From Candidatus Woesearchaeota archaeon (lineage in GTDB: Archaea; Nanobdellota; Nanobdellia; Pacearchaeales; UBA284), in the NCBI GenBank assembly GCA_964354405.1, contig CAYGZP010000002.1, positions 71,671 to 135,670 of the forward strand: a stretch of DNA of 64,000 bases. Reading direction: 5' to 3'. Made by a program: the position numbers and the translations under genes. Positions 8,024 through 46,949 of this stretch are shown here, one piece after another. Below the pieces are notes generated by a model. That model did not search any database. It saw only the letters and a list, made by a program, of their open reading frames with translations, and was not told the DNA's origin. Every line of letters starts with the position of its first letter. The first letter of the stretch is position 1.

Positions 8024-9133
8024 TTAAATCTTTTTTCCTATCAACGCTTGCTCTTTCAAATTCTCAAGATCTTTGACAAGTTTTCTCGTGTCTTTTTCTC
8101 CAATAAGCCCTGTAAGTTTGCTCGACTGCACGCTTAAAGTATCAATCAAAGCTTGCAAGTTCCCAAAAGTTTCCATAAGTCTCTCGACAGACTCGTGGCT
8201 TATTGAAGTTTTGCTCAATAATCTATAACCTTTTGGTTTGACGGAGTCAGTTATACTTGAATAAAGCAGGATCTGCGCGATATTGCTGGGCTCGAGCAAT
8301 TCATCTAAAGATAATGATGGCAACGCGGTCTTAGAAAAATCCCAATTTCTGCTATAGTCTTTCAAAAGCAAATCTTTCTCTTTCTCCAAATCTTTTATAA
8401 CCTCTTTCAAGAGCATCTTGACAAGGTTTCCCTCGACTCCTAATTCAATGATATATTTTTTTATTGTCCTTGCGATTCTCGATATGATTTCCATTCGCTG
8501 TATGCACAAAGCAACTTCATTGAGGGTTATGAAATTTGTAAATTCAAGAATATTCAAGTTCACGAGCAACTCATTCAAGATTTCTCGATGTTTTTCCAAC
8601 ATTCTCAGAGTTTCAGTAGCCTTGCTCAATATCTCTTCAGAGCTTCTGAGGACATATCTTGTGTTTTTGTAATATAATGTTATAGTTTTTCTTCTTTCCG
8701 AGACTGCTATAACCGGCCTTGTTGTCTGTTTGGCTGTTCTTTCAGCTGCTCTGTGTCTTGTTCCTGTTTCATTAGTATCGATGTTCGCATCCGGCACAAG
8801 CTGGGTGTTGCAGCAAACAATTTTTTTCAAATCATCAGAGAGAATTATAGCACCATCCATCTTGCAAAGCTCAACAAGTTGCTGAGGAGTAAATTTAGAG
8901 CCAATTTTTATGCCGCCGTTAGTAATCTTAAGCACTTCAGGAGAATCTCCCAACACAATCAACGCACCCATCCCCGCACGGGCGATATCTTCTATGGCAG
9001 CGCGCAAATATGTTCCGGGAGTCATTGGCTTTAAAACACTCAAAAGCTCCTCGAACTCTCTCTCTTTCTTCTCATCTTCCAGGGCTTTAAGCTCAAGCTC
9101 TTCCTTAAACTCCTCTTCTTTTTTGTCAGTCAT
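8024..9133 (-). CDS. disA: DNA integrity scanning protein DisA (diadenylate cyclase, DAC domain + linker + HhH)
   Basis: 369 aa; it can be aligned along its whole length to bacterial DisA. Diagnostic motifs are GALIVLG, MDGAIILSDD (DGA) and ETGTRHRAAERTAKQT (RHR). A PKGYRLLSKT linker segment and a C-terminal helix-hairpin-helix region are also present. Confidence 0.85.
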   Translation of the reverse strand: MTDKKEEEFKEELELKALEDEKKEREFEELLSVLKPMTPGTYLRAAIEDIARAGMGALIVLGDSPEVLKITNGGIKIGSKFTPQQLVELCKMDGAIILSDDLKKIVCCNTQLVPDANIDTNETGTRHRAAERTAKQTTRPVIAVSERRKTITLYYKNTRYVLRSSEEILSKATETLRMLEKHREILNELLVNLNILEFTNFITLNEVALCIQRMEIISRIARTIKKYIIELGVEGNLVKMLLKEVIKDLEKEKDLLLKDYSRNWDFSKTALPSLSLDELLEPSNIAQILLYSSITDSVKPKGYRLLSKTSISHESVERLMETFGNLQALIDTLSVQSSKLTGLIGEKDTRKLVKDLENLKEQALIGKKI

Positions 9134-14593: not shown

Positions 14594-15565
14594 CTATAAA
14601 AGTTCCATCGCTTTCTCAAGCATAATCATCTCTTCATTAGCCTTGACAACAGCTGTCCCAAACTTCAAAGGCAGATAGCCGCAGATTTTATTTCTTATGA
14701 ACTCGCTCTCCTCGCCGATTCCCCCAGAGAAAACAACAAAATCAATGTAACCCAATGCAGCTTTGTATGCGCAGACTTGTTTCGCTATATTATAACAGAA
14801 AATATCTAAAGCCTGGGCATTTTTAACATCCCCCCTCCTGTCAACAATCTTTTTTACATCTCTCGAGCCAGTCAAACCATATAATCCACATTCATTATTC
14901 AAAATATCTTTAGCTTTCTTCAATCCAAATTGTTCTACAAGAAACAAAACAATTCCAGGATCTATGCTCCCCGCTCTTGTCACCATCATGATTCCTTCTA
15001 AAGGTGTCAGCCCCATGCTTACATCAAGTGCTTTTCCCTTTGATATAGCTGCAACACTGCATCCCGCTCCGAGATGGCATGAAACAATATTCTTGTCAGG
15101 GAAATGTTTCGCGATATACTCGTGATTCAACCCATGGAACCCATAACGCTTAATTCCATATTTCTTCGAGATTGCCGTCGGCAAAGCATAAGTTTTTGCT
15201 TTGTCAGGAAGCTCAGTAAAGAAAGAAGTGTCAAAGACAGCGATTTGTTTAGCATGTTTCGCGCATTTCTGGGATAACTTGATTACTTCAAGCTCGCGGG
15301 GATTGTGCAAAGGAGCGAACTTAGAGTATTTCACAATCTCCTTAATAATTTTTGCAGTTATGAAACAAGGCTTGCTCAACTCGCCGCCATGAACCACTCT
15401 GTGGGCAATACAAGAAGGATTACATTTCTTCACAGCCTCGCGGACAATCTTCTGATAATCCTTGGATTTGTTTGTACAGAAGGTTTTTTTCTCCTTCAAG
15501 TTCTTGTTATCATAAAAACTGTATTTCACTGTCTCTGAACCAACATTAAATATCAAAAATCTCAT
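14594..15565 (-). CDS. ackA: acetate (acyl) kinase, compact form
   Basis: 323 aa; motifs NVGSETVKY, HRVVHGG, PLHNP, FDTSFF, YGFHGLNH, HLGAGCSV, GLTPLEG...GSIDPG. It overlaps the CooS-like stop by 4 nt. Confidence 0.8.
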   Translation of the reverse strand: MRFLIFNVGSETVKYSFYDNKNLKEKKTFCTNKSKDYQKIVREAVKKCNPSCIAHRVVHGGELSKPCFITAKIIKEIVKYSKFAPLHNPRELEVIKLSQKCAKHAKQIAVFDTSFFTELPDKAKTYALPTAISKKYGIKRYGFHGLNHEYIAKHFPDKNIVSCHLGAGCSVAAISKGKALDVSMGLTPLEGIMMVTRAGSIDPGIVLFLVEQFGLKKAKDILNNECGLYGLTGSRDVKKIVDRRGDVKNAQALDIFCYNIAKQVCAYKAALGYIDFVVFSGGIGEESEFIRNKICGYLPLKFGTAVVKANEEMIMLEKAMELL

Positions 15566-17148
15566 TTTTTAGTTTTTGCCCTCGTTTTTCTTAAGTTTTC
15601 TTTCTTTATTATTCTTTTGAACAAGTGCTCGGGAGAGGTTTCAAGGAAAACTCTGCTTTCAAACTTGTCTCGCAATACATTTTCCAAGAACTGGGCGATG
15701 GTTGTGTCGCTTGATATCATGAAAGGATAGCCAAAATGAACATCGACTCCCAAGGAAGCAAAAAACATTCCAATTGCGATGGCTTTTTCAGTTATCGGCA
15801 TCGGACATGATATCAAGAAAGGCATGTCAGTTATTCTCTTGCCACTCAATTCCGAAATTCTTTTAAAAACTTCCGCGATTCTCGAGTTGTTAACACAAGA
15901 ACCCATGTGATAAACTCGCTTGCCATCCAACAATCCATTCTGTCCGAACTTGAAAGCCATGCATCCTGTAGTAAGAATAATATAATCTTTGCTTAATTTC
16001 TTATATATTGGAATCCAATCTTCTTTAACTCGGGGGTTTGCACATCCAACCACTCCGATAATCCCTTTGACCTTTCCTTTCTCAAGTTGCTCTTGCCATT
16101 TTTGCAGAGGCAAATTGTCCTCGGAAAAACCCACAACAACTTCTCTCCTTACTTTCTTGAGTGAGATTTCCTTTCTCTTTCTTCTGTTCGCTCTTGCAAG
16201 CTGGATAATTTTCTTCGCGTTTTCCTCAGCTTCTTTAGGATTTCTGAAAGGCATATGCATTGCATTAGGGATTCTGCATAATTTGTTAGTTGTTATAAGA
16301 ACAGTATGATAACACTCGCACAAATCAGCCAAGGAGGGCATAATGCATTGAACATCTACAACCATTGCCTCGACAGCTCCTGAAGCAATCACATCCTCCT
16401 GCAGAATAAAATGTGCAGCCATCGGGATTCCATATCTCGCCAGAACACTCGCGCCAGTGCAGCAGACTCCAATCAGATTGATATCTTTATTTTCGGGCTT
16501 TTTCATCTCTTTCGCAAGAGCAATCGCCAACATGGGCTCGTGTCCATGAACCGCGATATTCACTTTATCCTCGCGAATAACCCCCATATCCAAAATTCCC
16601 TTTCTAACTTCAGGCTTGCCATAATATCTGTCCTCAAGTTCTGTAGCGAGATACAATCCATAATAACCGTCAACAATCCCCATCCTCATTGTTCTTTTTA
16701 ATATGCTCGTGTAGTCTGCATCAACACCCATTGATGAGGCATGCAAGGCTTCGCTGATGTCTTTGAAATGCTCAAAATGAATCACAGGCACAATTCCCAA
16801 CTCTTGCCATAACTTGTAAAGATAGCTCGGAGCCTTTTTTTCAATATAAAGTTGAGGATAATCTAATTCCAAAAAGTTTTTGAGATGATAAGCATGTCCG
16901 ACATGGCAAGCTGCTCCTGCAGCTGCAAATCTCAATAAATTGCGAGCCACAACCAAATCTTGATTTGCTCCGCACACTCCTCGTTGTTCTTTTGCCACAA
17001 CTCTGCAAGGCCCCATCAAGCAGTTCCTGCAGCACTTGCCCTGCAATCCTATAGGACAAGGAGCCATTAGTTTCTCCCTTTCGCAAACTAATGGGATATT
17101 GCATTTCTTTTTTTTCTCTATCTTCTTTTTTTTCTTCTCTTTTTTCAT
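15562..17148 (-). CDS. cooS: CooS-family protein (Ni,Fe-CO dehydrogenase catalytic subunit-like), compact
   Basis: N-terminal CPIGLQGKCCRNCLMGPCR...GVCGANQDLVVARNLLRFAAAGAACHVGHAYH matches the CooS B/D-cluster region. Downstream VHGHEPMLAIAL, IGVCCTGAS, TTGCMAF, HMGSCVNNSR and VGCANP match the C-cluster ligand segments. The true start may be the internal MAPCPIG near 17067, because the Lys-rich N-terminus derives from a homopolymer tract. Confidence 0.7.
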   Translation of the reverse strand: MKKEKKKKKIEKKKKCNIPLVCEREKLMAPCPIGLQGKCCRNCLMGPCRVVAKEQRGVCGANQDLVVARNLLRFAAAGAACHVGHAYHLKNFLELDYPQLYIEKKAPSYLYKLWQELGIVPVIHFEHFKDISEALHASSMGVDADYTSILKRTMRMGIVDGYYGLYLATELEDRYYGKPEVRKGILDMGVIREDKVNIAVHGHEPMLAIALAKEMKKPENKDINLIGVCCTGASVLARYGIPMAAHFILQEDVIASGAVEAMVVDVQCIMPSLADLCECYHTVLITTNKLCRIPNAMHMPFRNPKEAEENAKKIIQLARANRRKRKEISLKKVRREVVVGFSEDNLPLQKWQEQLEKGKVKGIIGVVGCANPRVKEDWIPIYKKLSKDYIILTTGCMAFKFGQNGLLDGKRVYHMGSCVNNSRIAEVFKRISELSGKRITDMPFLISCPMPITEKAIAIGMFFASLGVDVHFGYPFMISSDTTIAQFLENVLRDKFESRVFLETSPEHLFKRIIKKENLRKTRAKTKK

Positions 17149-17975
17149 TTTTTCTTTTTTCTCAGTTCATCAACTTGTAGAACAGTTATCGCAGCCAAGT
17201 TTACAATATCTTGTATTGAGCATCCTCTTGACAAATCATTTACTGGCTTGTTCAAGCCCTGTAATATCGGGCCGATAGCATGCCATCCTGCAAATCTTTC
17301 AACAAGCTTGTAGCCAATGTTACCTGCATCGAGGCAAGGGAAAATCAAAACATTATAAGCTAAAGCTTTCGCGCCCTTCATTCTGGCTACATTCAAGTTC
17401 AGCGCCGCGTCAGCTTGAATCTCACCTTCAACATTCAAATCTGTTTGTTTTAAAATTTTTACAGCCTCGCGCACATTATCAACACTCAAGCCCTTGCCCG
17501 AGTCCTTGGTAGAATAAGACAACATCGCTACTACAGGCTCAGTTTTTGTGATAAGTTTGAAAGTTTTCGCGCTCAGCTCTGCAATTTCAGCGAGCTGTTC
17601 TGGATTCGGCTCAGGCTGCGCAGCGCAGTCAGCGAAGAGCATCGCGCTTTTCTTGTCAGGCGATATCATGAGAAAAGCACCGCTGGTTCTCTTGACTTCT
17701 GGCGCCATAAACTTAAAAGCAAGATATAATGTCATCGAGCTTGAATGAGAAGCTCCAGTTATTATCGCATCTGCCTCGTTGTTGTGCAGCATTAACTCTG
17801 CTTTCTCAAGATTTTTCTCAATTCTCCTGTCTTTCAATGTAATCACTTTAGCTATATTTTCATCTTCTATAATTTGTATCGCTTTGTTCACTCTAGAATC
17901 CTGCTCGGGAAAAACAATCCTCACAACTCGATGTTTGTTAATCCCTCTAGCTCTTTTTCTTATATTCTCAATCAT
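17145..17975 (-). CDS. pta: phosphate acetyl/butyryl-transferase (Pta/Ptb family)
   Basis: 276 aa; it has the fold signature of Pta/Ptb phosphotransacylases and its stop overlaps the CooS-like start (ATGA). Confidence 0.75.
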   Translation of the reverse strand: MIENIRKRARGINKHRVVRIVFPEQDSRVNKAIQIIEDENIAKVITLKDRRIEKNLEKAELMLHNNEADAIITGASHSSSMTLYLAFKFMAPEVKRTSGAFLMISPDKKSAMLFADCAAQPEPNPEQLAEIAELSAKTFKLITKTEPVVAMLSYSTKDSGKGLSVDNVREAVKILKQTDLNVEGEIQADAALNLNVARMKGAKALAYNVLIFPCLDAGNIGYKLVERFAGWHAIGPILQGLNKPVNDLSRGCSIQDIVNLAAITVLQVDELRKKKK

Positions 17976-37515: not shown

Positions 37516-39081
37516 ATGGCTCTGCCACCACCATCATTCAAAGCTTCCGCGCTTCCCAAACCCGCCCATCCTGTAATAAATCTTAACCCGGAGATTCCTC
37601 GGCTGCGAAGGGTTGAAGACAAGACAAAAATTAATGTAAGATATGCATTGATTGTTCCTCATGCAACTGTGCATATATACTGGAATCCGAACATCGGCGA
37701 GGTTATCTATGAGATTGAAGAGCCCCTTCTGAACGAAACCGAAGTCAAGATTCTTGGCGAGTTGGAGACAGGGATGTATGAATTGATTAATCTTGGAGCT
37801 GTAGTTGAAAAAACCCAAGAAGCATTGCTAAGTTATCTCGAGAAGATGGCAAGATTGCTGTTGAAAGAGCTTGGAAGAAGCATCAATGAGGAGAGTTATG
37901 GCAGAATTTTCTACTATCTATATCGCGACTTCATAGGATTGAATGAAATCGAACCAATGTTGCGCGATTTTTTCATTGAAGATATTGAGTGCAACGGAGT
38001 CGGAACTCCAGTATATGTTGTTCACCGAGTCTATCGAAACCTAAGGACAAATTTAATCTACAAAGATATGAACAGGGCCGCGAGTTTCGTAGAAAAGTTA
38101 GCACAAAGATGCGGGCGCTATGTTTCATATGCCTCCCCACTCTTGGATGGAACTCTTCCAGATGGCTCAAGAGTCAATGCAACTTACACAACAGAAGTCT
38201 CAAGCAGGGGGCCAACATTCACAATAAGAAAATTCACAAAAGTCCCTTGGACGCCTGTTCAACTTATCTCAATGAATACTCTCTCGCCAGAAATGTTAGC
38301 TTATTTCTGGATATTGATGCAATATAAGTGTAACATTCTTGTGGCAGGAGGCACTGGCTCGGGCAAGACATCCTTGCTAAATGCATTTGCGTTTTTCATT
38401 CCTCCAGAAGCGCGAGTTGTTTCAGTTGAAGACACTCGTGAGATTAATTTGCCAAGAGAAAACTGGCTGCCAAGTGTCGCGAGAACAGGACTTCCAGGAG
38501 GAGTTGGAGAGGTAGATATGTTCGCCCTGCTCAAAGAAAGCTTCAGGCAAAATCCAGATTATGTTATTGTTGGAGAAGTCAGAGGAAAAGAAGCCTTTGT
38601 ATTATTCCAGGCAATGGCATCTGGCCACCCAAGCTTGAGCACAATGCACGCAGAATCAGTTGAAACAGTGATTCGAAGATTAGAAACCCCGCCGATTAAC
38701 TTGAGCCCAACACTAGTCAATAGCTTGGACGCAGTTGCTATAATGACTCATGCACTCGTGGGCAAGCAGGAAACAAGACGATTGAAAGAAATAGTTGAAG
38801 TTATCGATGTCACAGCAGAAGGTGTCGCAGTAACCAACACTCCATTTGCATGGAATCCTGCAGAGGATAAATTTTATTTCAAGACAGAGAGCAAAGTTTT
38901 CGAGAAGATAATAAAACGATATGGCTTGAAGAAAGAACAACTCGCAGAGGAATTCAAATTAAGAACAAAGTTGCTTTACACATTATTCAAGAAAAAAATA
39001 TTTGATTTTGAAACAGTACAGAAAATAATCAATGAGTATTACAAGAACCCTTCAGGTGTATTGAAAAGATACTCCATATAA
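37516..39081 (+). CDS. type IV pilus/archaellum-family secretion ATPase (TadA/FlaI/PilB-like)
   Basis: 521 aa; Walker A VAGGTGSGKTSLLNA, Asp/His boxes (VVSVEDTREI, GEVRGKEA) and a GHPSLSTMHA motif, as in the VirB11/FlaI superfamily. Confidence 0.8.
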   Translation: MALPPPSFKASALPKPAHPVINLNPEIPRLRRVEDKTKINVRYALIVPHATVHIYWNPNIGEVIYEIEEPLLNETEVKILGELETGMYELINLGAVVEKTQEALLSYLEKMARLLLKELGRSINEESYGRIFYYLYRDFIGLNEIEPMLRDFFIEDIECNGVGTPVYVVHRVYRNLRTNLIYKDMNRAASFVEKLAQRCGRYVSYASPLLDGTLPDGSRVNATYTTEVSSRGPTFTIRKFTKVPWTPVQLISMNTLSPEMLAYFWILMQYKCNILVAGGTGSGKTSLLNAFAFFIPPEARVVSVEDTREINLPRENWLPSVARTGLPGGVGEVDMFALLKESFRQNPDYVIVGEVRGKEAFVLFQAMASGHPSLSTMHAESVETVIRRLETPPINLSPTLVNSLDAVAIMTHALVGKQETRRLKEIVEVIDVTAEGVAVTNTPFAWNPAEDKFYFKTESKVFEKIIKRYGLKKEQLAEEFKLRTKLLYTLFKKKIFDFETVQKIINEYYKNPSGVLKRYSI

Positions 39082-39113: not shown

Positions 39114-39290
39114 ATGATAACACAGCAAAAGATAACTTTTATTCTGCAGCTCGTGAATTCAACACAAGAAGTTCTAGCAGCTTTGGAAAAAGCCGCAAGA
39201 CAGGGCTTCAAGCCCGAGTTCGAGTCAGTAAAGCAAGAGTTGTTGAATATGCTTAATGAAGTAAAAGGAGAAATCAAGAATTTGAGATAA
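39114..39290 (+). CDS. possible small helical ORF (58 aa), not in track
   Basis: ATG-to-TAA ORF between the ATPase and platform genes (MITQQKITFILQLVNSTQEVLAALEKAARQGF...); no upstream SD is evident. Confidence 0.25.
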   Translation: MITQQKITFILQLVNSTQEVLAALEKAARQGFKPEFESVKQELLNMLNEVKGEIKNLR

Positions 39291-39324: not shown

Positions 39325-40623
39325 ATGCAAGAGATAGTTAAGATAAAAGCAAATTTGGAACAGGCAAAGAAAATATTGCAGGAGTTGAACTCTGTTGCTC
39401 TAGCTAACACAAGAGCAAAGATAGATGAGCGAACACTTTTAGAAAAAACTTCCAAATCTCTTGTAGACCAATTATCCATGCTCTATGAACCTCTGCCAAG
39501 TCTCGCACAAAATATAATTTATGAAGGCAAGCGAGCTCCTGAGAAGCCCACAGCAAAAAAAGAAACAACAATTGTTGAAGTCGAGAGAATTCCAACAGCA
39601 GGCGGCTCAGTATATGTCACAACAGAAGGAAAAGAAAAGTTTCTTGAAGAATTAAATCTAAGCTCAAAGCAACTTAAAGAGGCGAAAGCAAAAATATTCA
39701 AGAAAAAAGGGAAAGAGAAAGAGCAAGAAGATATAACATTTGGTATAAAACCCTCGAGTCTTGGAGCATTTTCAAGCAAGCTTTTCGGCGAGTTTTCATC
39801 AGGCCTGACTAAAGCCTCGTTATTCAAAAGCGTCGAGAGAGACTTGAGAAAAGCGAACATGCCATTCATGCTCTCTACTTATATCTCCATAATATTTTTC
39901 TGGACTTTCCTCGCATTCTTTGTTTCATTGATTGTCGCGCTGGCAGTAAGCTTTGCGATGAACGAAGCCATTCTTGGAATAGTGAGAAATATTGGTTTAG
40001 GGGTGCTCGCCACTGTTGTTGTGTTTCTTGTAGCGCTGACATATCCTGCTAACATCGCAGGGGGCAACAGAAGAAAGATTAACTCTGAGCTTCCTTTCGC
40101 AGCAGCGCACATGGCAGCGATAGCCTCAAGTAAAGTTGAGCCTTCAAAAATTTTCGCGATAATGGCTCTGACAAAAGAATATAAAGCATTTGGCGCCGAG
40201 ATTCGCAAAATTGTGAATCAGATAAATGTCTATGGCTATGATTTAACAACAGCTTTGAGAAACGCAGCTAAAACCAGCCCAAGCAAAAGACTCGCGGACT
40301 TGTTCGGCGGCATGGTCACAACAATCACAACCGGAGGCAACTTGACAACATATCTCCAGGAAAAATCCAAATCTCTTTTAATTGATTACAGGCTCAGCCA
40401 CGAGCGTTACACAAATGTTATAGGGATGTATTCTGACATCTACACCGCGCTGCTTATTGCCGCTCCTCTAATCTTCATGCTTCTCTTGGCAATAATCTCA
40501 ATCATGGGCTCGACTTTCTTGGCAATGGATATCACAACTCTCGCTAATCTTGGGATAATTATCATTGCCGCACTCAACATATTATTTCTGGTATTCCTTA
40601 AATTCACCCAACCCGAAGTTTAA
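39325..40623 (+). CDS. T2SS-F domain membrane platform protein (TadC/FlaJ-like)
   Basis: 432 aa; soluble N-terminal region then TM helices flanking a cytoplasmic T2SSF-type domain (LPFAAAHMAAIASSKVEP...YLQEKSKSLL). Confidence 0.65.
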   Translation: MQEIVKIKANLEQAKKILQELNSVALANTRAKIDERTLLEKTSKSLVDQLSMLYEPLPSLAQNIIYEGKRAPEKPTAKKETTIVEVERIPTAGGSVYVTTEGKEKFLEELNLSSKQLKEAKAKIFKKKGKEKEQEDITFGIKPSSLGAFSSKLFGEFSSGLTKASLFKSVERDLRKANMPFMLSTYISIIFFWTFLAFFVSLIVALAVSFAMNEAILGIVRNIGLGVLATVVVFLVALTYPANIAGGNRRKINSELPFAAAHMAAIASSKVEPSKIFAIMALTKEYKAFGAEIRKIVNQINVYGYDLTTALRNAAKTSPSKRLADLFGGMVTTITTGGNLTTYLQEKSKSLLIDYRLSHERYTNVIGMYSDIYTALLIAAPLIFMLLLAIISIMGSTFLAMDITTLANLGIIIIAALNILFLVFLKFTQPEV

Positions 40624-40655: not shown

Positions 40656-41510
40656 ATGATAAGCAAACCACAAATCACAGGCATTATAATAGGATTAGTC
40701 ATGGCTATCCTTAGCTATATTATTTTTCCCCAGTCAAAAATATTCTGGTTTTTGCTAGGCATTTCAATACTTGTCGCCGGCATCCCATTCCTCGCATCAA
40801 TGATAGTTGAGAGGGGCAGAGAGAAAGAAAAAGAAGAATTGTTCCTTGCTTTTGCTCTTGATTTAGTAGAAAGTGTCAAGGCTGGCGCCCCAATTTCAAA
40901 GAGCATTGTTCAAATAGCTCAGAAAGATTATGGCTCGCTAACCCCGCATGTAAAGAAACTCGCGAATCAGGTTGCTCTTGCCATTCCAGTAAGACAAGCT
41001 CTAAGAACTTTTGCTTCTGACATAAACAATAAAGTCATCTCGCGCAGTATCGAGCTCATAATTGAAGCCGAGGCTTCTGGAGGAGAGATAGGCAAGATAA
41101 TTGATGCAGTTGTCAAGAGCGTTACAGAAATAGAGGATTTGAAAAAAGAACGAGCCTCAAGAATCTTTGGCATGGTTGTCCAAGGATATATCATCTTTTT
41201 CATATTCGTTGCTATAATGTTGTTTGTTGAAATCAAGTTCATGCCTTTAATCACTGGCGCGCTATCAGGAACACAGATGCCTACAGGCACAGTCGGAGTA
41301 GGAAGCACAAGTTTCACTTTAGGAGGAAGCGTTTCACAAGCCATAATCGAACGTTCATTTTTCATCCTATTGCTCATGCAAGCATTGTTCGCAGGCTTAG
41401 TTATAGGAAAGTTAAGCGAGGGCTCAATCAAGTATGGAATCAAACACAGCGCCATTCTCTTGGCAGTCGCTTATCTTACTGTGACAGCTGCTCGAGCGCT
41501 CGTGGCATAA
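40656..41510 (+). CDS. T2SS-F domain membrane platform protein (TadB/FlaJ-like)
   Basis: 284 aa; TM helices flanking a T2SSF-like helical domain (ALDLVESVKAGAPISKSIVQIA...). Confidence 0.6.
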   Translation: MISKPQITGIIIGLVMAILSYIIFPQSKIFWFLLGISILVAGIPFLASMIVERGREKEKEELFLAFALDLVESVKAGAPISKSIVQIAQKDYGSLTPHVKKLANQVALAIPVRQALRTFASDINNKVISRSIELIIEAEASGGEIGKIIDAVVKSVTEIEDLKKERASRIFGMVVQGYIIFFIFVAIMLFVEIKFMPLITGALSGTQMPTGTVGVGSTSFTLGGSVSQAIIERSFFILLLMQALFAGLVIGKLSEGSIKYGIKHSAILLAVAYLTVTAARALVA

Positions 41511-41541: not shown

Positions 41542-42816
41542 TCAATACACTTGTTTTCCCCATCTGACTTTTTTTCTTAGAATCCATTTGTATGCGATTG
41601 TGTAAAGCCACCAACCAGGGAATATCAGCCAGTAAGTCAGGAAGAAATACAAATAAGCCAAGCCCAAGTTTCCTTTATCTTTTGATTGGCTCTTCCCTAT
41701 ATACAAAACAATCATCGACAAGACAATACCAACAAGCATAAACACAATAAAAGGATTGGTAATATAGCTATACAAGAACTCCATAACATCGCGCCATTTA
41801 AAATTGTATAAAAATGGGCTTATATCAAAATTCGTGACAAAAAATCTTACAACCATGTCTTTCGCACTGATGAAAGCCTGATAAAACAGGACAAAAAGCA
41901 TTGCAAATGCTATGAGCACAGCCGCGAATGCAGAAGGCAATATCAATACAGCAAGATTATCCCATCTCTTTGGAGGAAATAATTCTGGATAATTAAAAGC
42001 GTTCTTAGTAAATCCATAATACCATCTCAATCTCTGTTTGAAAACACTCGCAAAACTGTGCGGCTGCTTTACATACACGCATGCACTCATGCTGTTCTTG
42101 ATTTTGTAGCCTTTGGCCTGGATTCTCAATGCAATTTCAGTGTCTTCAGTTGGATTATGCTCGTCAAAATATCCATGTTTCTCGAAAAAGCTTCTCCTAT
42201 ATACAGAGAATGGCCCTGGGATAATATGGATTGCCTCATTCAAGTCAAAGACTTTTCTCAAATAAATCCCCAGCATAAATTCCGCGAGCTGCAGATGAAG
42301 CCAGAAACCTTTTGGCTTGTGAAGGCTCATTGCCGGGGTGACTGAAGCAACTTTCTTGTCTTCATCAAAATATCCAAGCATTTTTTTCAACGAGTCTGGA
42401 GCGACAAAAGAATCAGCATCCATGCTAACGACAAATTCTCCATGAGCTCTTTTCAGTCCATGATTCATTGCGCTGCCCTTGCCCCCGTTCTCCTTGCTAT
42501 AAAGTTTGATGTCTCGATTTCTATACTTTACAATAATCTGTTTCACAATAGAAGCTGTGCGGTCAGTGCTGCCGTCATTCACAACAATTATCTCTATTTT
42601 TTCTTTGGGATAATCCAAGTCAAGCAAAGTTTGAATTGTTCTCGCGATTGTCTTCTCCTCATTCCAAACCGGAACTACAACAGAGACTTTAGGAAATCGC
42701 TTTAATGGAGGATCTTCCAATTTTGATAAATTCTCCAGATAACTCAGTAAAAAGAATACAGAAGTAAACAGTCCAACATAAACTCCTATGTACAAGATGA
42801 TATGTGTCCACAACAT
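41542..42816 (-). CDS. processive family-2 glycosyltransferase (cellulose/chitin/PNAG-synthase-like, membrane-integrated)
   Basis: 424 aa; VVVPVWNEE...VVNDGSTDRT, DADS (DxD), QRLRW (QxxRW) motifs plus multiple C-terminal TM helices. Confidence 0.75.
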   Translation of the reverse strand: MLWTHIILYIGVYVGLFTSVFFLLSYLENLSKLEDPPLKRFPKVSVVVPVWNEEKTIARTIQTLLDLDYPKEKIEIIVVNDGSTDRTASIVKQIIVKYRNRDIKLYSKENGGKGSAMNHGLKRAHGEFVVSMDADSFVAPDSLKKMLGYFDEDKKVASVTPAMSLHKPKGFWLHLQLAEFMLGIYLRKVFDLNEAIHIIPGPFSVYRRSFFEKHGYFDEHNPTEDTEIALRIQAKGYKIKNSMSACVYVKQPHSFASVFKQRLRWYYGFTKNAFNYPELFPPKRWDNLAVLILPSAFAAVLIAFAMLFVLFYQAFISAKDMVVRFFVTNFDISPFLYNFKWRDVMEFLYSYITNPFIVFMLVGIVLSMIVLYIGKSQSKDKGNLGLAYLYFFLTYWLIFPGWWLYTIAYKWILRKKVRWGKQVY

Positions 42817-42964
42817 TTTTGATAAACCACAGATATAAGTCCAACTTTTATTTTTATAGATTTATGTACAATAATATATAACATTAATAATAACAAAAAT
42901 ATATAATTTAATTCTTATATCGCAGTTTAATTATATTTAAATACAATCCAGCACATTAATAAAC

Positions 42965-43639
42965 ATGGCTAAGGAAAAGGGTAAGAAAAGCAAGGGAGAC
43001 AGAAAAGGCACTACAAGCAGATATATAGTTACATTTTCTTTCGCAACTTTACTTTTCATAATAGGAATTCTCATAGGCTCGGCAATAACAGCCACTAAAG
43101 TAGAAAATATGATAAACACCCGCGAGGAATTAAGATTGGAGATGCTTGATTTAGAGCTCCAAGGTGCATTAGCAGAACAAAATCCTTGCGGCAATTATGT
43201 TGTATATGGCTTGGGCGAGAAACTTGATGATTTGGGCACAAGATTAACAATGTTGGAAGATCAATTGGGCAAGAGCGATTCAAGAGTCATTGAACTGAAA
43301 CAGCCCTACACTTTATTGATGATACAGCACTATATCTTAATAAAGAAGCGAGTTGAGAAATGCAATGAAAACTATCATATAGCTTTATTTTTCTATTCAA
43401 ACAAGCCCGAGTTTGTTGAAGACAGCAAGAAACAGGGTTTTGTTCTCAGCTATTTGGCCAAAAAATATGGTTATGAGCAAGTGAAGGTTTATTCATTAGA
43501 TGTTGATTTGAACATGGGAGTTGTCAATACATTAAAGGAGATGTATAATGTCTCAACAGTGCCAACAACAGTGTTCAATGACAAAGTTTATTCGGGTTAT
43601 CATGAGTCAGAAGAATTCGAAAAAGAATTCATTGCGTAG
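42965..43639 (+). CDS. hypothetical single-TM protein within glycosylation cluster
   Basis: 224 aa; N-terminal TM (IVTFSFATLLFIIGILIGSAI), coiled region and a C-terminal alpha/beta region with a VPTTVF cis-Pro-like loop but no CxxC. Confidence 0.3.
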   Translation: MAKEKGKKSKGDRKGTTSRYIVTFSFATLLFIIGILIGSAITATKVENMINTREELRLEMLDLELQGALAEQNPCGNYVVYGLGEKLDDLGTRLTMLEDQLGKSDSRVIELKQPYTLLMIQHYILIKKRVEKCNENYHIALFFYSNKPEFVEDSKKQGFVLSYLAKKYGYEQVKVYSLDVDLNMGVVNTLKEMYNVSTVPTTVFNDKVYSGYHESEEFEKEFIA

Positions 43640-45119
43640 ATGGCATAAGATAATTTGTAGAATAAAGATATATTCTTCTACCGCACTTGTCAAAAAATTC
43701 TTTTTCTAATTTTAAGATATTACTCTTGTCTAATATTTCTTTATCAAATTTAGTTCCTATACTGTCGCTATAGATAACATATGGCGCTTTATATTGGTCT
43801 ACCAGCGCAATTATATTATCACTCCAAAAAGTAAACGCTTTGACATTTAAAGAATAACCGAACCATGGCCAAGCATTGCTTAGGATAGTATCATTCTCAT
43901 TTAACCTGTAATCTGCATCGTTTTTCAAATAGTCTATTGCTTGAGAAATTGAACTATTCTTCCCGCAAACATATTTTTCTTTAAGTAAAGCATAGGCGAT
44001 TAAAAGATTGAAAAATAAAGATAAAACAATTAATCCTATCACAATCATAAAAATTATTTTTCTGAAATTTATTTTTTTCTTGTTAAACCACCCAAACAGG
44101 GAAGTAAAACCCCTGAACGCAATCAAGTAGACGAAAGGCAAGAATGCAAAATAATAGCGCTCGTCCTTGAGCTTTACAAAAAACAGATAGTAAACTAAGG
44201 ACAACAAAACATAAATTAAAATCAGAAGGTTTAATCTTTCATCTTTTCTGTTTTTCCTTGCAAGAGAATATAGACTCGCGTATAACCCTATAATCAAGAA
44301 GACAGGCACTAAAAAATTAGTAAAAAAGAAAAGATTCCAGACTTGTTTCATAATTGGCTCAGGAGAGGTGTAAGTCTGTACAACTGAGTACAATGCTCTT
44401 AAATCCCAAATAGGATTATTATAATTAACCTGATTGTAGATGAGCCAGGGCGATAGTGCTATTAAAAAAGCGAGAGCAAAAATCAAAAGATGCTTGATTC
44501 TTTTTTTGATTATAAGATAGATTGAAAGAGAAATCGCAAAAAGAAAAAGAGGGAATCTTGTTAAGAAGGCTAATGCCGAGAAAACCCCGGCTAAAGCAAC
44601 AAATACCAAGCAGCTTTTTTTGTTCTGTTTTTCCTCACTCTTCATGATAAAATAAAAAGCGAGAGTAACAAAAAACATCGCAGGGATGTCTGCATAGACA
44701 TGCAGGCCCCAGACCAAGAGCAACGGTGACAGAGCAAAAAGACTGCAAAGCAGAAGCGAAAGTTGCCACGAGAAATATTTTTTTCCTATCACATAAACCA
44801 AAAAAACTGTTGCGAGGGTCATTAAGATAATAACCATTCTTGCAATGAACACGTTTTCGCCAGTAAAAACCCATGCCAGAGCTATAATCCATTCAAGAAG
44901 GGGGAATCTAAAATCTTCAGTGAAGTTGCTCTGGGTAATATGGCTTCTCGCATTTCCCAAATAAACATTTTCATCCCATAAAAGTCCCAAGTTGCTTAAA
45001 TTTAAAAACAGAAAAAAAGCAAAAAAAATCAAAAGAACAATCCAGATAATCCATTTCTTTTCTTTATTTGTTTTTTCCCTGAATTTTTTGATATTTCTTT
45101 TCATTTCCATACCCACCAT
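43629..45119 (-). CDS. GT-C fold glycosyltransferase (ArnT/PMT, GT39/GT83-like)
   Basis: 496 aa polytopic membrane protein; first-loop WDENVYL (DE motif) typical of ArnT/PMT-family GT-C enzymes that use polyprenyl-phosphate sugar donors. Confidence 0.6.
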   Translation of the reverse strand: MVGMEMKRNIKKFREKTNKEKKWIIWIVLLIFFAFFLFLNLSNLGLLWDENVYLGNARSHITQSNFTEDFRFPLLEWIIALAWVFTGENVFIARMVIILMTLATVFLVYVIGKKYFSWQLSLLLCSLFALSPLLLVWGLHVYADIPAMFFVTLAFYFIMKSEEKQNKKSCLVFVALAGVFSALAFLTRFPLFLFAISLSIYLIIKKRIKHLLIFALAFLIALSPWLIYNQVNYNNPIWDLRALYSVVQTYTSPEPIMKQVWNLFFFTNFLVPVFLIIGLYASLYSLARKNRKDERLNLLILIYVLLSLVYYLFFVKLKDERYYFAFLPFVYLIAFRGFTSLFGWFNKKKINFRKIIFMIVIGLIVLSLFFNLLIAYALLKEKYVCGKNSSISQAIDYLKNDADYRLNENDTILSNAWPWFGYSLNVKAFTFWSDNIIALVDQYKAPYVIYSDSIGTKFDKEILDKSNILKLEKEFFDKCGRRIYLYSTNYLMPSTQ

Positions 45120-46192
45120 AAACTTATAAGATATGCAAAAATTGTTGCTAAAGCTATCCCTATAAGATTAGAAACAAGATAATGCAAACCAAGTGAAGTT
45201 AATATCCATAAAGCTCCAAAATTAATTATTAATGTAAATATCCTAGCTAAATTGAACTTCCCAAGTCTCATAAGAAATTTTCCTTTTCTTTCTCTCTTAA
45301 AAGTCCATATATCATTTAAAATAAAATTGGATAATATAGAAATTTCTATAGCAATAATGCTCGAGAACAAATAAAATAATCCTGCAAACTCTGTCAGGAG
45401 CCAAAGCAACCCTTCGTTCACAAAAATGCCACTTAATCCTACAGCACCAAACTTTAGAAAACGCTTATGTTCCTTAGAATATATAGCAAGTTTCAATAAA
45501 TGTCTTACTGCCAAGATAGTCTGCTTCAAGCTAAACTTACTTTTACCCCTTTCTCTATTTTTAAAATTAAAGGGGATTTCTACTACCTTATTGTAATCTC
45601 CTTTTGCTAATATCTCTAATAATATTTTAAAACCTTGGGGTTTAAGTTTAGTTTTTTTGATTACACTTCTCCTGAAAGCAAAAAATCCGGTTGAAGGATC
45701 TTTGATATGGCTTGTTTTAGGTACTGCAATATGTGCAAGAAAACAAAAAACCCTGGATACAAAAGTTCTCCAAAGGCCAAAATTAACTTTTGAGCCCTTC
45801 ATTAATCTCGACGCTATAACAATGTCATTTCCTTTTTCCAAATTTTTGATTAATTTTGGAATCAACTCAGGGAGATGCTGCAAATCCGCATCCATCACTA
45901 CAACAATCTCGCCTTTTGTTTTAGGTAAAACATTAACTATAGCATTGCTCAAGTCAGTATTGCCGGTTTGTATCGCTCTAATGGGCCACCCATATCTTGA
46001 AGCCAAACGTTTAGCCATGTTTACTGTGTCATCTTTGCTATTGCTATCTGCTACAATAATTTCATAATTTTTTAAGTGCAATTTTGCGATTCTTTTAAAT
46101 AGAATTTCGAGATTTTGGGATTCGTTCAATGTAGGCACTATAATAGATATCATAAAACATCGAAAAATATTAAAAGTTATAAATCTTGCCAT
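45101..46192 (-). CDS. polyprenyl-phosphate hexose synthase (Dpm1/GT2-like) fused to GtrA-like TM domain
   Basis: 363 aa; ISIIVPTLNE...VADSNSKDDT, DADLQH motifs, and a C-terminal four-TM GtrA-like domain (KFGAVGLSGIFVNEGLLWLL...). Confidence 0.7.
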   Translation of the reverse strand: MARFITFNIFRCFMISIIVPTLNESQNLEILFKRIAKLHLKNYEIIVADSNSKDDTVNMAKRLASRYGWPIRAIQTGNTDLSNAIVNVLPKTKGEIVVVMDADLQHLPELIPKLIKNLEKGNDIVIASRLMKGSKVNFGLWRTFVSRVFCFLAHIAVPKTSHIKDPSTGFFAFRRSVIKKTKLKPQGFKILLEILAKGDYNKVVEIPFNFKNRERGKSKFSLKQTILAVRHLLKLAIYSKEHKRFLKFGAVGLSGIFVNEGLLWLLTEFAGLFYLFSSIIAIEISILSNFILNDIWTFKRERKGKFLMRLGKFNLARIFTLIINFGALWILTSLGLHYLVSNLIGIALATIFAYLISLWWVWK

Positions 46193-46208: not shown

Positions 46209-46949
46209 ATGTTCGAATCAATAAAACTGTCTAATGAAAAAGAAGAAGGGTGCGAAGAGTGCTTGGCAAGGGCTTACTTGATTGAGGCGATAATTGACGG
46301 CCAGCAAAAGCGGCTTTGCAATAAATGTATTGTGGCTAATAATGCGATTGTTCTGAAAGGGCCGAAGCATATAGAGATGGACATAATCAACAGACCATCT
46401 GTCCGCGATGCAATCTTCAGAGCATCAGGGATGCATCCCCATCCTATTCAACCAACATATCGCGAAGCCAAGCTCGAGGACTTGCGCGAGCGTTATGAGG
46501 AAGTGAAGAAAAAGAAAGCAGAGGAGCAGGCAAAGCTAATGAGTATAGTGCTCCCAAAAAGAGAGAACCCCAAAGTCTTGGATGAAAAAGATTTCATTAA
46601 CTATATGAAATCTCTGCCTCCAGAGCAAACTAAATCTCAAACAACTTCACAAACTTCTCAAACCCCTTCTTCACAAATATCTCCCTCAATCCAACCTCCA
46701 CAGCCAATTCAACCAACCCCTCCCATTCAGCCCATTCAACCTTTATCTCCTTCCTCTCCTTCTCCTCAGCCAATTTCCCCTAAGCCAGTTCAACCAGAAA
46801 AAGGCGGCGGGAAAAAAATTCTTGATTTTAGCATAGAGGGCGCGAGAAGAACAAGAATCCGCGATCTTTTGGAAAGCATGCAGAAAAAAGACGATGATGC
46901 AGATGCCCAAAATTTAGAGAAAGAGAAAAAGCGAGAGGAAAAAGTTTAA
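46209..46949 (+). CDS. zinc-ribbon protein with Pro/Gln/Ser-rich disordered region
   Basis: 246 aa; CEEC...x20...CNKC ribbon at the N-terminus; PQPIQPTPPIQPIQPLSPSSPSPQPISPKPVQP low-complexity tract; acidic/basic C-terminus. Confidence 0.4.
   Translation: MFESIKLSNEKEEGCEECLARAYLIEAIIDGQQKRLCNKCIVANNAIVLKGPKHIEMDIINRPSVRDAIFRASGMHPHPIQPTYREAKLEDLRERYEEVKKKKAEEQAKLMSIVLPKRENPKVLDEKDFINYMKSLPPEQTKSQTTSQTSQTPSSQISPSIQPPQPIQPTPPIQPIQPLSPSSPSPQPISPKPVQPEKGGGKKILDFSIEGARRTRIRDLLESMQKKDDDADAQNLEKEKKREEKV

Follow-up and report, generated by a model that had tools for sequence, protein, structure and literature searches.

A putative envelope-glycan gene module with an uncharacterized thioredoxin-fold protein in DPANN archaea

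Four linked genes on a DPANN contig

Here we describe a cluster of four genes, three of them encoding glycosyltransferases, on a 64,000-nucleotide stretch of DNA (the window; contig CAYGZP010000002.1 of assembly GCA_964354405.1, positions 71,671 to 135,670 of the forward strand) from a Candidatus Woesearchaeota archaeon. The window has a GC content of about 0.37 and contains archaeal-type genes, including those for ribosomal proteins L7Ae and S28e, Kae1, a TrmB regulator, elongation factor 2, Nre and a PAC2 proteasome-assembly protein. Scans for RNAs over its whole length found neither tRNA genes nor Rfam families. An initial annotation, made from the sequence alone, had placed three glycosyltransferases at positions 41542–46192, beside pilus genes. 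All three are present, with support from Pfam, motifs and structures that goes far beyond chance. Their assignments to glycosyltransferase family 2 (GT2), to the PMT_2/ArnT-like GT-C enzymes and to Dpm1–GtrA proteins are upheld by Pfam, by the GT-C fold and by a match to the dolichyl-phosphate mannose synthase (DPMS) of P. furiosus, PfDPMS.

The interval consists of four open reading frames (ORFs), for a membrane GT2 synthase (SYN), a 224-amino-acid protein (ORF224), a GT-C glycosyltransferase (GT-C) and a DPMS. ORF224, which sits between the SYN and GT-C genes, was missing from the initial annotation. With few exceptions, homologues of the four genes are from genome bins of Pacearchaeota, Woesearchaeota, Nanoarchaeia and Nanobdellota. 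Taken singly, the enzymes are unremarkable new members of known families. What is moderately new is the recurring four-gene arrangement, the uncharacterized thioredoxin-fold protein encoded by ORF224, and the occurrence of SYN and this partner in both DPANN archaea and bacteria that resemble the candidate phyla radiation (CPR).

A synthase-type membrane glycosyltransferase

SYN (424 amino acids; positions 41542–42816, minus strand) is assigned to the BcsA/NodC/PgaC/chitin-synthase type of membrane GT2 synthases on the basis of Pfam, NCBIfam, motifs, Protein Data Bank (PDB) matches and hydropathy. Its Pfam matches are Glycos_transf_2 (9.4e-39), Glyco_trans_2_3, Chitin_synth_2 and Glyco_transf_21. 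The top NCBIfam family is PgaC_IcaA (the TIGR03937 equivalog), with 168.7 bits against a cut-off of 422.3, so that SYN is not a member; no curated NCBIfam cut-off is reached, and the hallmarks of the BcsA/NodC/PgaC group are present nonetheless. The longest PDB sequence matches are to BcsA, with an alignment that spans profile positions 17–280, and to the hyaluronan synthase HAS1.

Residue conservation was assessed in 50 homologues each of SYN and GT-C. D81, D133xD135, E224-D225 and Q261-R262-x-R264-W265 of SYN are invariant and T223 is nearly so; SYN itself reads Q261-R-L-R-W265. Membrane segments, which were taken from hydropathy throughout, lie at residues 6–24, 290–308 and 356–374, with a further aromatic-rich segment at the C terminus. 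At least two C-terminal segments are strongly hydrophobic, and a 265-residue, K/R-rich loop in between holds the catalytic domain. SYN therefore has the full motif set of processive β-glycan synthases, with D, DxD, TED and QxxRW in a cytoplasmic GT-A domain that membrane helices flank. DxD and QxxRW had been the basis for calling it processive in the initial annotation, and both are invariant. From the full motif set we infer that SYN makes a polymer, with both processivity and translocation predicted, and this polymer possibly contains N-acetylglucosamine (GlcNAc), as suggested by the best match to PgaC/IcaA and by PIG-L fusions in relatives (see below).

In its general plan, SYN resembles PgaC/PgaD, IcaA/IcaD, BcsA/BcsB, NodC and the chitin and hyaluronan synthases, with about 420 amino acids, an N-terminal helix, a cytoplasmic GT-A domain carrying D/DxD/TED/QRxRW, and C-terminal helices. 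As in PgaC/PgaD-type systems, a gene for a small membrane protein follows SYN in the operon in most relatives. Unlike in PgaC/PgaD and IcaA/IcaD, this partner is a single-pass thioredoxin-fold protein that is unrelated in sequence to any solved protein, and the CE4 deacetylase of PgaB/IcaB systems is not present; a few relatives have a fused PIG-L domain instead.

The same enzyme could act on lipids. SYN might be of the GT21, ceramide-glucosyltransferase or processive glycolipid-synthase type and add sugar head groups to membrane lipids, with GT-C extending a glycolipid or lipoglycan outside the cell using dolichyl-phosphate (Dol-P)-mannose, in the manner of PimE in mycobacteria. We consider this unlikely. 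It has in its favour the Glyco_transf_21 match (1.3e-13, above its cut-off), the alignment of a ceramide glucosyltransferase in the PDB over SYN residues 7–265 and the small number of membrane helices that SYN would have for a channel. However, GT21-type models score lower than those for PgaC/IcaA (168.7 bits), cellulose synthase and NodC, and the TED and QRxRW motifs are invariant, as in polymerizing synthases.

An uncharacterized thioredoxin-fold protein

ORF224 (224 amino acids; positions 42965–43639, plus strand) belongs to an uncharacterized family. It has no Pfam, NCBIfam or significant PDB sequence match, and no Pfam thioredoxin model reaches threshold; the predicted fold is thus the only informative evidence. 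Fold matches here and below come from AlphaFold2 models searched with Foldseek and a PDB fold search. The ORF224 model (predicted local distance difference test (pLDDT) 90.9) has a membrane helix that runs on into a long one, then two more helices and a β-α-β-α-β-β-α domain, and its Foldseek list is headed by thioredoxins (E of about 1e-4, target TM-score 0.6–0.67). Because eight K/R residues precede the membrane helix in the hydropathy analysis, the body of the protein should face outside the cell. We therefore describe ORF224 as an N-terminally anchored protein in which a helical stalk and a thioredoxin-fold domain are predicted to point outward.

The family is large, with 1,225 clusters (50% identity) at E ≤ 1e-3 and 912 at E ≤ 1e-10. 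Nearly all members have 205–240 amino acids, and every one is labelled ‘hypothetical’ in its source. In the family alignment, E98, K112, Y115, H122, C133, F143-Y-S-N146, G158, Y176-S177 and D179 are invariant and C75 is nearly invariant. At the canonical site of the thioredoxin CxxC motif the window protein reads FFYSNKPEFVEDSKKQG, and CxxC is absent. The motif occurs at this position in 48 of 243 sampled members (around 20%), and the subfamily that has it shows no variation in either cysteine pair or in a proline at the cis-Pro position. Judging from the model, the family looks like a membrane-anchored thioredoxin-like protein whose redox site was lost in the window's own branch; given this loss of CxxC, the window protein is unlikely to be a redox enzyme.

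Proteins of the DsbA/ResA/TlpA type and the Ost3/Ost6 subunits of the eukaryotic oligosaccharyltransferase are membrane-anchored, extracytoplasmic thioredoxin-like proteins; ORF224 resembles them in its N-terminal anchor and in a thioredoxin fold that is predicted to lie outside the cell. Unlike these proteins, the window protein and most DPANN members are without CxxC, and in ORF224 the fold is preceded by a three-helix stalk with its own conserved cysteine pair and an E/K/Y/H cluster. The SYN and ORF224 genes diverge from a 148-bp spacer (positions 42817–42964), which on direct reading is AT-rich with TATA-like runs and may contain promoters.

A dolichol-sugar synthase coupled to a GT-C enzyme

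DPMS (363 amino acids; positions 45101–46192, minus strand) combines a GT2 domain (Glycos_transf_2, 1.4e-32, residues 16–180) with a four-helix GtrA/DPMS membrane domain (GtrA_DPMS_TM, 1.6e-27, residues 247–362). The protein is collinear with PfDPMS (PDB code 5MLZ; E 1.7e-92, 47% identity over 350 residues, positions 10–362 against 20–372). Together, the Pfam match and this alignment confirm that a Dpm1-like protein carries a GtrA-type membrane domain, as had been proposed. Such a fusion is not new: P. furiosus has a solved type-III DPMS with this architecture (PMC12992685; PDB codes 5MLZ, 5MM0, 5MM1 and 9EP0).

Type-III enzymes are defined by a motif, phosphate ligands, a polar pocket and a gating residue, Phe338 (PMC12992685). 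D101-A-D-L-Q-H-L-P108 of the window protein agrees with the type-III metal/diphosphate motif 89-DADxQHPP-96 (x is L, F or Y) at seven of eight positions, with Leu in place of the first Pro (DADLQHLP). The ligands of the Dol-P phosphate are kept, with R129 (in SRL rather than SRY), R142, S146 and K189-I-L corresponding to Arg117, Arg131, Ser135 and Lys178 (KIL) of PfDPMS, and N259 and N289 correspond to the polar-pocket residues Asn248 and Asn277. Phe338 is replaced by T350, with a Phe two residues later, and Arg341 by A353. As the gating Phe is missing, we regard the enzyme as type-III-like rather than as a strict type-III member. Its 47% identity to a mannose enzyme suggests that the sugar placed on dolichol is mannose. 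Type-III DPMS has been considered characteristic of hyperthermophiles, Nanobdellota being a possible further source of members (PMC12992685). By contrast, the host of the window enzyme is a low-GC DPANN archaeon with close relatives from groundwater and sediment metagenomes, and the many DPANN copies of DPMS come largely from groundwater and sediment bins, which suggests that the architecture, at least, reaches beyond hyperthermophiles.

The GT-C gene (positions 43629–45104, minus strand) encodes 491 amino acids from the database start, which is Met6 of a full ORF of 496 amino acids (43629–45119). It was identified from Pfam, a WDE motif, an AlphaFold2 model and fold search. Pfam reports PMT_2 (6.5e-16) and PMT (7.3e-08, 32.7 bits, residues 76–233). 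W43-D44-E45 is invariant among the homologues, which span 28–59% identity, as are N51, E63, P68 and R316-Y317. The initial annotation had named a missing Asp–Glu motif in the first loop as grounds for giving up the assignment; the motif is present in every homologue. It lies in the loop after the first transmembrane helix, and the strongly basic N-terminal side of this helix (nine K/R residues) indicates that the loop should face outward.

Sequence searches of the PDB with GT-C, both as a single sequence and as a profile, found nothing, and the protein is placed by fold search alone. Its model is confident (pLDDT 93.3, predicted TM-score 0.92) and ends in a small soluble α/β domain of around 90 amino acids. 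Down to about E 0.1, the PDB fold matches are all GT-C enzymes: ArnT, AglB, STT3, ALG9/ALG12, AftA and Pmt4. ArnT has the best TM-scores (0.66–0.67 by query and 0.61–0.62 by target), with Pmt4 and Pmt1/2 placed lower than ArnT, AglB and ALG9/12. GT-C is nevertheless not a member of the ArnT (GT83) equivalog PRK13279 (30.2 bits against a cut-off of 567). Nor does it group with the PMT1/2/4-type GT39 enzymes, as a Pfam scan found no MIR domain or other PMT-specific feature.

The stop codon of DPMS and the database start of GT-C overlap in the sequence ATGA, which we read as an operon signal and as translational coupling. Given the fold and this coupled DPMS gene, GT-C is a putative user of polyprenyl-phosphate-linked sugar. 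The proposal that a lipid-linked sugar is made inside the cell and used outside by GT-C is consistent with the topology and the predicted fold, and it has precedents in the three-component extracytoplasmic glycosylation systems of the Gtr type (PMC11127046) and in their archaeal counterpart, AglD/AglR/AglS of Haloferax (PMC3871713). GtrB/GtrA/Gtr*, ArnC/ArnEF/ArnT and CsbB/GtcA/YfhO (PMC11127046), like AglD/AglR/AglS (PMC3871713), pair a GT2 polyprenyl-phosphate-sugar synthase with an outward-facing GT-C enzyme, and in the window this pair is translationally coupled. Unlike the Gtr, Arn and CsbB systems, the interval lacks a flippase gene of its own; instead, DPMS includes the GtrA-like domain, for which a flippase role has been hypothesized (PMC12992685). 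The window pair also differs in its associations, being tied to a GT2 of the synthase type and a protein with a thioredoxin fold and not to a pathway of the Wzx/Wzy, ABC-transporter or teichoic-acid kind.

At another locus (L007:2287–9344), a carotenoid-type operon with overlapping stops and starts runs into a DPMS–GT-C pair. Its genes encode amine-oxidase/CrtD-like, SQS_PSY, polyprenyl synthase, UbiA and Caroten_synth proteins, which hints that a glycosylated isoprenoid lipid or pigment is a further class of acceptor for the GT-C family.

Linkage of the four genes across DPANN archaea

To place the window among its relatives, we used the GT-C alignment to collect loci (numbered with the prefix L) from species-representative genomes and scored their ORFs against the window proteins. 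The 34 usable loci cover Pacearchaeota, Woesearchaeota, Nanobdellota and Nanoclepta minutus; the last, which is grown in co-culture, has GT-C, ORF224 and SYN (L043). Within 10 kb of GT-C, ORF224 is found in 22 loci, SYN in 21 and DPMS in 17 (immediately upstream of GT-C in 16), and eight loci have all three. Gene order and strand vary among the loci, which argues for selection on proximity rather than for inherited synteny. The recurrence of SYN with GT-C in these shuffled arrangements bears out the view, already put forward in the initial annotation, that the three enzymes belong together.

ORF224 is both the tightest partner of SYN and the gene that remains with GT-C when SYN is displaced. 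SYN lies immediately upstream of ORF224 on the same strand in 19 of 21 loci, and in most relatives the pair abuts or overlaps. ORF224 in turn abuts GT-C directly in 16 of 22 loci; in the window the two genes overlap tail-to-tail by 11 nucleotides, and this tail-to-tail contact persists in loci from which SYN is absent or has moved (L011/L001, L003, L025 and L029). As it keeps to GT-C where SYN moves, ORF224 connects the two halves of the cluster.

Close relatives of the window have a common block: Kae1, L7Ae, S28e, T2SSE, two T2SSF genes, a variable slot, ORF224, GT-C, DPMS, a homologue of the window gene ORF246, RpoL, isoleucyl-tRNA synthetase (IleRS) and TrmB. The slot holds an inverted SYN in the window and in L047 and a gene for a glycoside hydrolase of family 3 (GH3) in L001, and it lacks SYN in L003; the L001 and L003 genomes have SYN elsewhere. 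The complete Pacearchaeota genome CP061211 likewise has all four genes, with SYN relocated. Inversion of SYN relative to the SYN–ORF224 order is confined to the window (41542–42964) and its nearest relative (L047:6887–8275), in which SYN is 92% identical. The GH3 gene in L001 shares the slot between T2SSF and ORF224 with a 113-amino-acid ORF (L001:10111–11539).

On this evidence we tentatively favour, at odds a little short of even, the reading that the interval represents a four-gene envelope-glycan module found repeatedly in DPANN archaea, in which the glycan made by SYN is decorated outside the cell from Dol-P-mannose. A less probable but possible explanation is that two independent systems have become neighbours in compact genomes. 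DPMS and GT-C would then glycosylate proteins, either by O-mannosylation of S-layer or other surface proteins or by adding the last mannose of an N-glycan, as AglD and AglS do in Haloferax, and SYN and ORF224 would separately make an exopolysaccharide. Indeed, DPMS–GT-C occurs alone in many loci (L013, L026, L031, L032, L037, L041 and L042) and SYN–ORF224 alone in CPR-like bacterial loci. GT-C matches both PMT and PMT_2 in Pfam, and AglD/AglR/AglS is an archaeal precedent (PMC3871713). Compaction alone, however, can hardly explain why SYN and ORF224 stay within 10 kb of GT-C in 21 of 34 loci despite rearrangement, nor does it sit well with the way ORF224 abuts GT-C and stays when SYN moves, and the lack of MIR domains or other PMT-specific features in GT-C also speaks against a protein O-mannosyltransferase.

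The synthase and its partner in bacteria

The SYN–ORF224 pair is also found outside DPANN archaea. P0416, encoded on contig L048, is a 475-amino-acid fusion of an ORF224 domain to a PIG-L domain (of the GlcNAc de-N-acetylase family), and its gene directly follows that of a 412-amino-acid SYN homologue. The same contig encodes RecO, NusA and alanine racemase, which marks it as bacterial. A metagenome scan with a five-sequence alignment of the CxxC subfamily of ORF224 returned at least 513 relatives, from which 80 loci were kept; 56 of these had enough upstream sequence to be judged. A SYN homologue lies immediately upstream of the ORF224 relative in 53 of the 56, and none of the 80 has GT-C or DPMS within 6 kb. 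The ORF224 relatives at these loci have an intact CxxC. Two more kept loci, L051 and L125, have the PIG-L fusion.

Bacterial origin was established for the three contigs checked, L048, L111 and L114. The latter two are long (593 kb and 362 kb) and encode DnaG, RpoD, EF-Ts, S2 and MreB; from their size, low GC content and genes they are probably CPR (Patescibacteria) genomes. A further candidate, P0168, labelled ‘Paceibacterota’, was rejected as a bacterial copy, as its contig (L050) has archaeal L31e, S19e and RpoL.

CPR bacteria and DPANN archaea are lipid-dependent symbionts, and a gene pair common to both would fit the glycolipid alternative, which could suit organisms that scavenge host lipids; PimE is also among the fold matches of GT-C, if weakly. 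The PIG-L fusions, on the other hand, fit a GlcNAc polymer at least equally well.

Two other features of these bacterial loci are recorded here. At L111:3875–4666, a DsbA-like Thioredoxin_4 protein is encoded divergently beside the pair of SYN and its CxxC-containing thioredoxin-like partner, and is a second redox protein at the locus. Around 5 kb upstream of the SYN and ORF224–PIG-L genes, L048:303–1522 encodes an RVT_1 reverse transcriptase with a bAvd gene, a combination that we take to be typical of diversity-generating retroelements.

A possible pathway for envelope glycan

Returning to the four-gene module, we propose the following sequence of steps. SYN would polymerize sugar from a nucleotide sugar and pass the chain outward, a GlcNAc-containing polymer being favoured. 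ORF224, with its outward stalk and thioredoxin-fold domain, may be the extracytoplasmic partner of SYN, as gene linkage suggests. At the cytoplasmic face, DPMS would charge dolichyl phosphate with mannose or another hexose, for which homology is strong. Flipped Dol-P-mannose has been found bound in the membrane domain of PfDPMS, and flipping by this domain was proposed as a hypothesis (PMC12992685). By analogy with these crystal data, the GtrA-like domain of the window enzyme may help its product to cross to the outer face. There, to judge from its fold and topology, GT-C would take the sugar from the Dol-P-sugar and transfer it to an acceptor. Gene linkage points to the product of SYN as this acceptor, or to a glycoconjugate handled together with ORF224.

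Several observations weigh against this proposal. The polymer made by SYN, the dolichol-linked sugar and the acceptor of GT-C are all predictions. The score of SYN falls well short of the PgaC_IcaA cut-off (168.7 against 422.3 bits), and membrane GT2 enzymes of the QxxRW type include lipid glycosyltransferases (GT21) as well as the non-polymerizing archaeal enzyme Pcal_0481 (PDB code 6YV7), which matches SYN at 89.7 bits. Pcal_0481, which has been described as having a ‘minimal cellulose-synthase-like fold’, is believed to act in N-glycan assembly (cited in PMC8993221); its match to SYN leaves room for a non-polymerizing role. In DPMS, the replacements at Phe338 and Arg341 affect residues proposed for flipping. 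The window SYN is on the strand opposite to ORF224 and so is not co-transcribed with it here. Finally, about a third of the well-flanked GT-C loci (for example, L013, L032, L037, L041 and L042) have DPMS–GT-C with no SYN or ORF224 nearby, and CPR-like loci have SYN–ORF224 without GT-C, which indicates that the two halves can work apart.

Pilus genes and other neighbours

Beside SYN, Pfam identifies a T2SSE pilus gene (37516–39081) and two T2SSF genes (39325–40623 and 40656–41510). The initial annotation had linked these to the glycosyltransferases as a surface-adhesion and glycan locus, a link that the comparison does not sustain. Only 3 of the 34 species-level loci have T2SSE/T2SSF genes within 10 kb of GT-C; the pilus genes of these three are nearly identical, and in these relatives they occur with L7Ae, S28e, L24e and IleRS in the same order. 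Their confinement to such relatives, together with ribosomal genes, makes shared ancestry of gene order the best explanation, so that the pilus genes are best explained as neighbours by lineage-specific synteny.

It is therefore highly improbable that GT-C mannosylates pilins of the adjacent T2SSE/T2SSF machinery. Such a role would fit the adjacency seen in the window and in relatives whose pilus genes are nearly identical (L001/L011, L003/L004, L012, L034 and L047), and also the pilin-like ORFs after a relocated SYN in two genomes, but pilus genes are near GT-C in those three loci alone, within what looks like an inherited block, and the interval 41542–46192 yielded no pilin gene. Between the pilus ATPase gene and the first T2SSF gene, a 58-amino-acid ORF (39114–39290, plus strand) encodes a hydrophilic helical protein; it has no hydrophobic segment and is not pilin-like. 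L001, L003 and L047 have ORFs of 58–63 amino acids at the corresponding site.

The ORFs that follow the relocated SYN genes (L009:8277–8969 and L010:8285–8815) have pilin-like N termini (KRG|ISHFE... and KKG|ITHIE...). They were rejected as ORF224 paralogues, being pilin-like and only 11–15% identical to it.

Beyond DPMS, ORF246 (46209–46949, plus strand) encodes an N-terminal, zinc-ribbon-like CxxC...CxxC segment, a low-complexity middle rich in P, Q and S and a tail rich in K and E, with no Pfam match; homologues are divergent beside DPMS or GT-C in L001, L012, L015, L017, L044 and L047. Elsewhere in the window, genes for acetate kinase and phosphotransacetylase, a pair that is unusual for archaea, flank that for a hybrid-cluster (prismane) protein (14594–17975, minus strand). 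The acetate kinase has 323 amino acids and covers only model positions 84–348 of 392. A DisA-type diadenylate cyclase with DAC and DisA-linker domains is encoded at 8024–9133 (minus strand).

Implications for ultra-small symbionts

For the annotation of the window, the outcome is a group of four linked genes whose pathway should not be taken to include the pilus genes. A literature search, incomplete in coverage, found no earlier paper on the pair of SYN and thioredoxin-fold protein or on the four-gene module in DPANN archaea or CPR bacteria. It is possible, although we hold this view with some doubt, that SYN and an ORF224-type protein constitute an undescribed two-protein glycan machine of both groups of ultra-small symbionts, in which CxxC is kept by CPR bacteria and has largely disappeared from DPANN archaea. 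In the latter, the machine would be joined to a Dol-P-mannose synthase/flippase and a GT-C enzyme to give a decorated, possibly GlcNAc-based envelope polymer or lipoglycan at the surface that contacts the host.

The findings also suggest that PfDPMS-like enzymes reach well past hyperthermophiles, the group to which they were assigned in 2026 (PMC12992685). DPANN archaea and CPR bacteria are abundant, mostly uncultured and reliant on contact with host cells, and their surface glycans are almost uncharted. The four-gene module of DPANN archaea, the two-gene core that they have in common with CPR-like bacteria and one wholly unannotated protein family offer handles on how these organisms build their surfaces.

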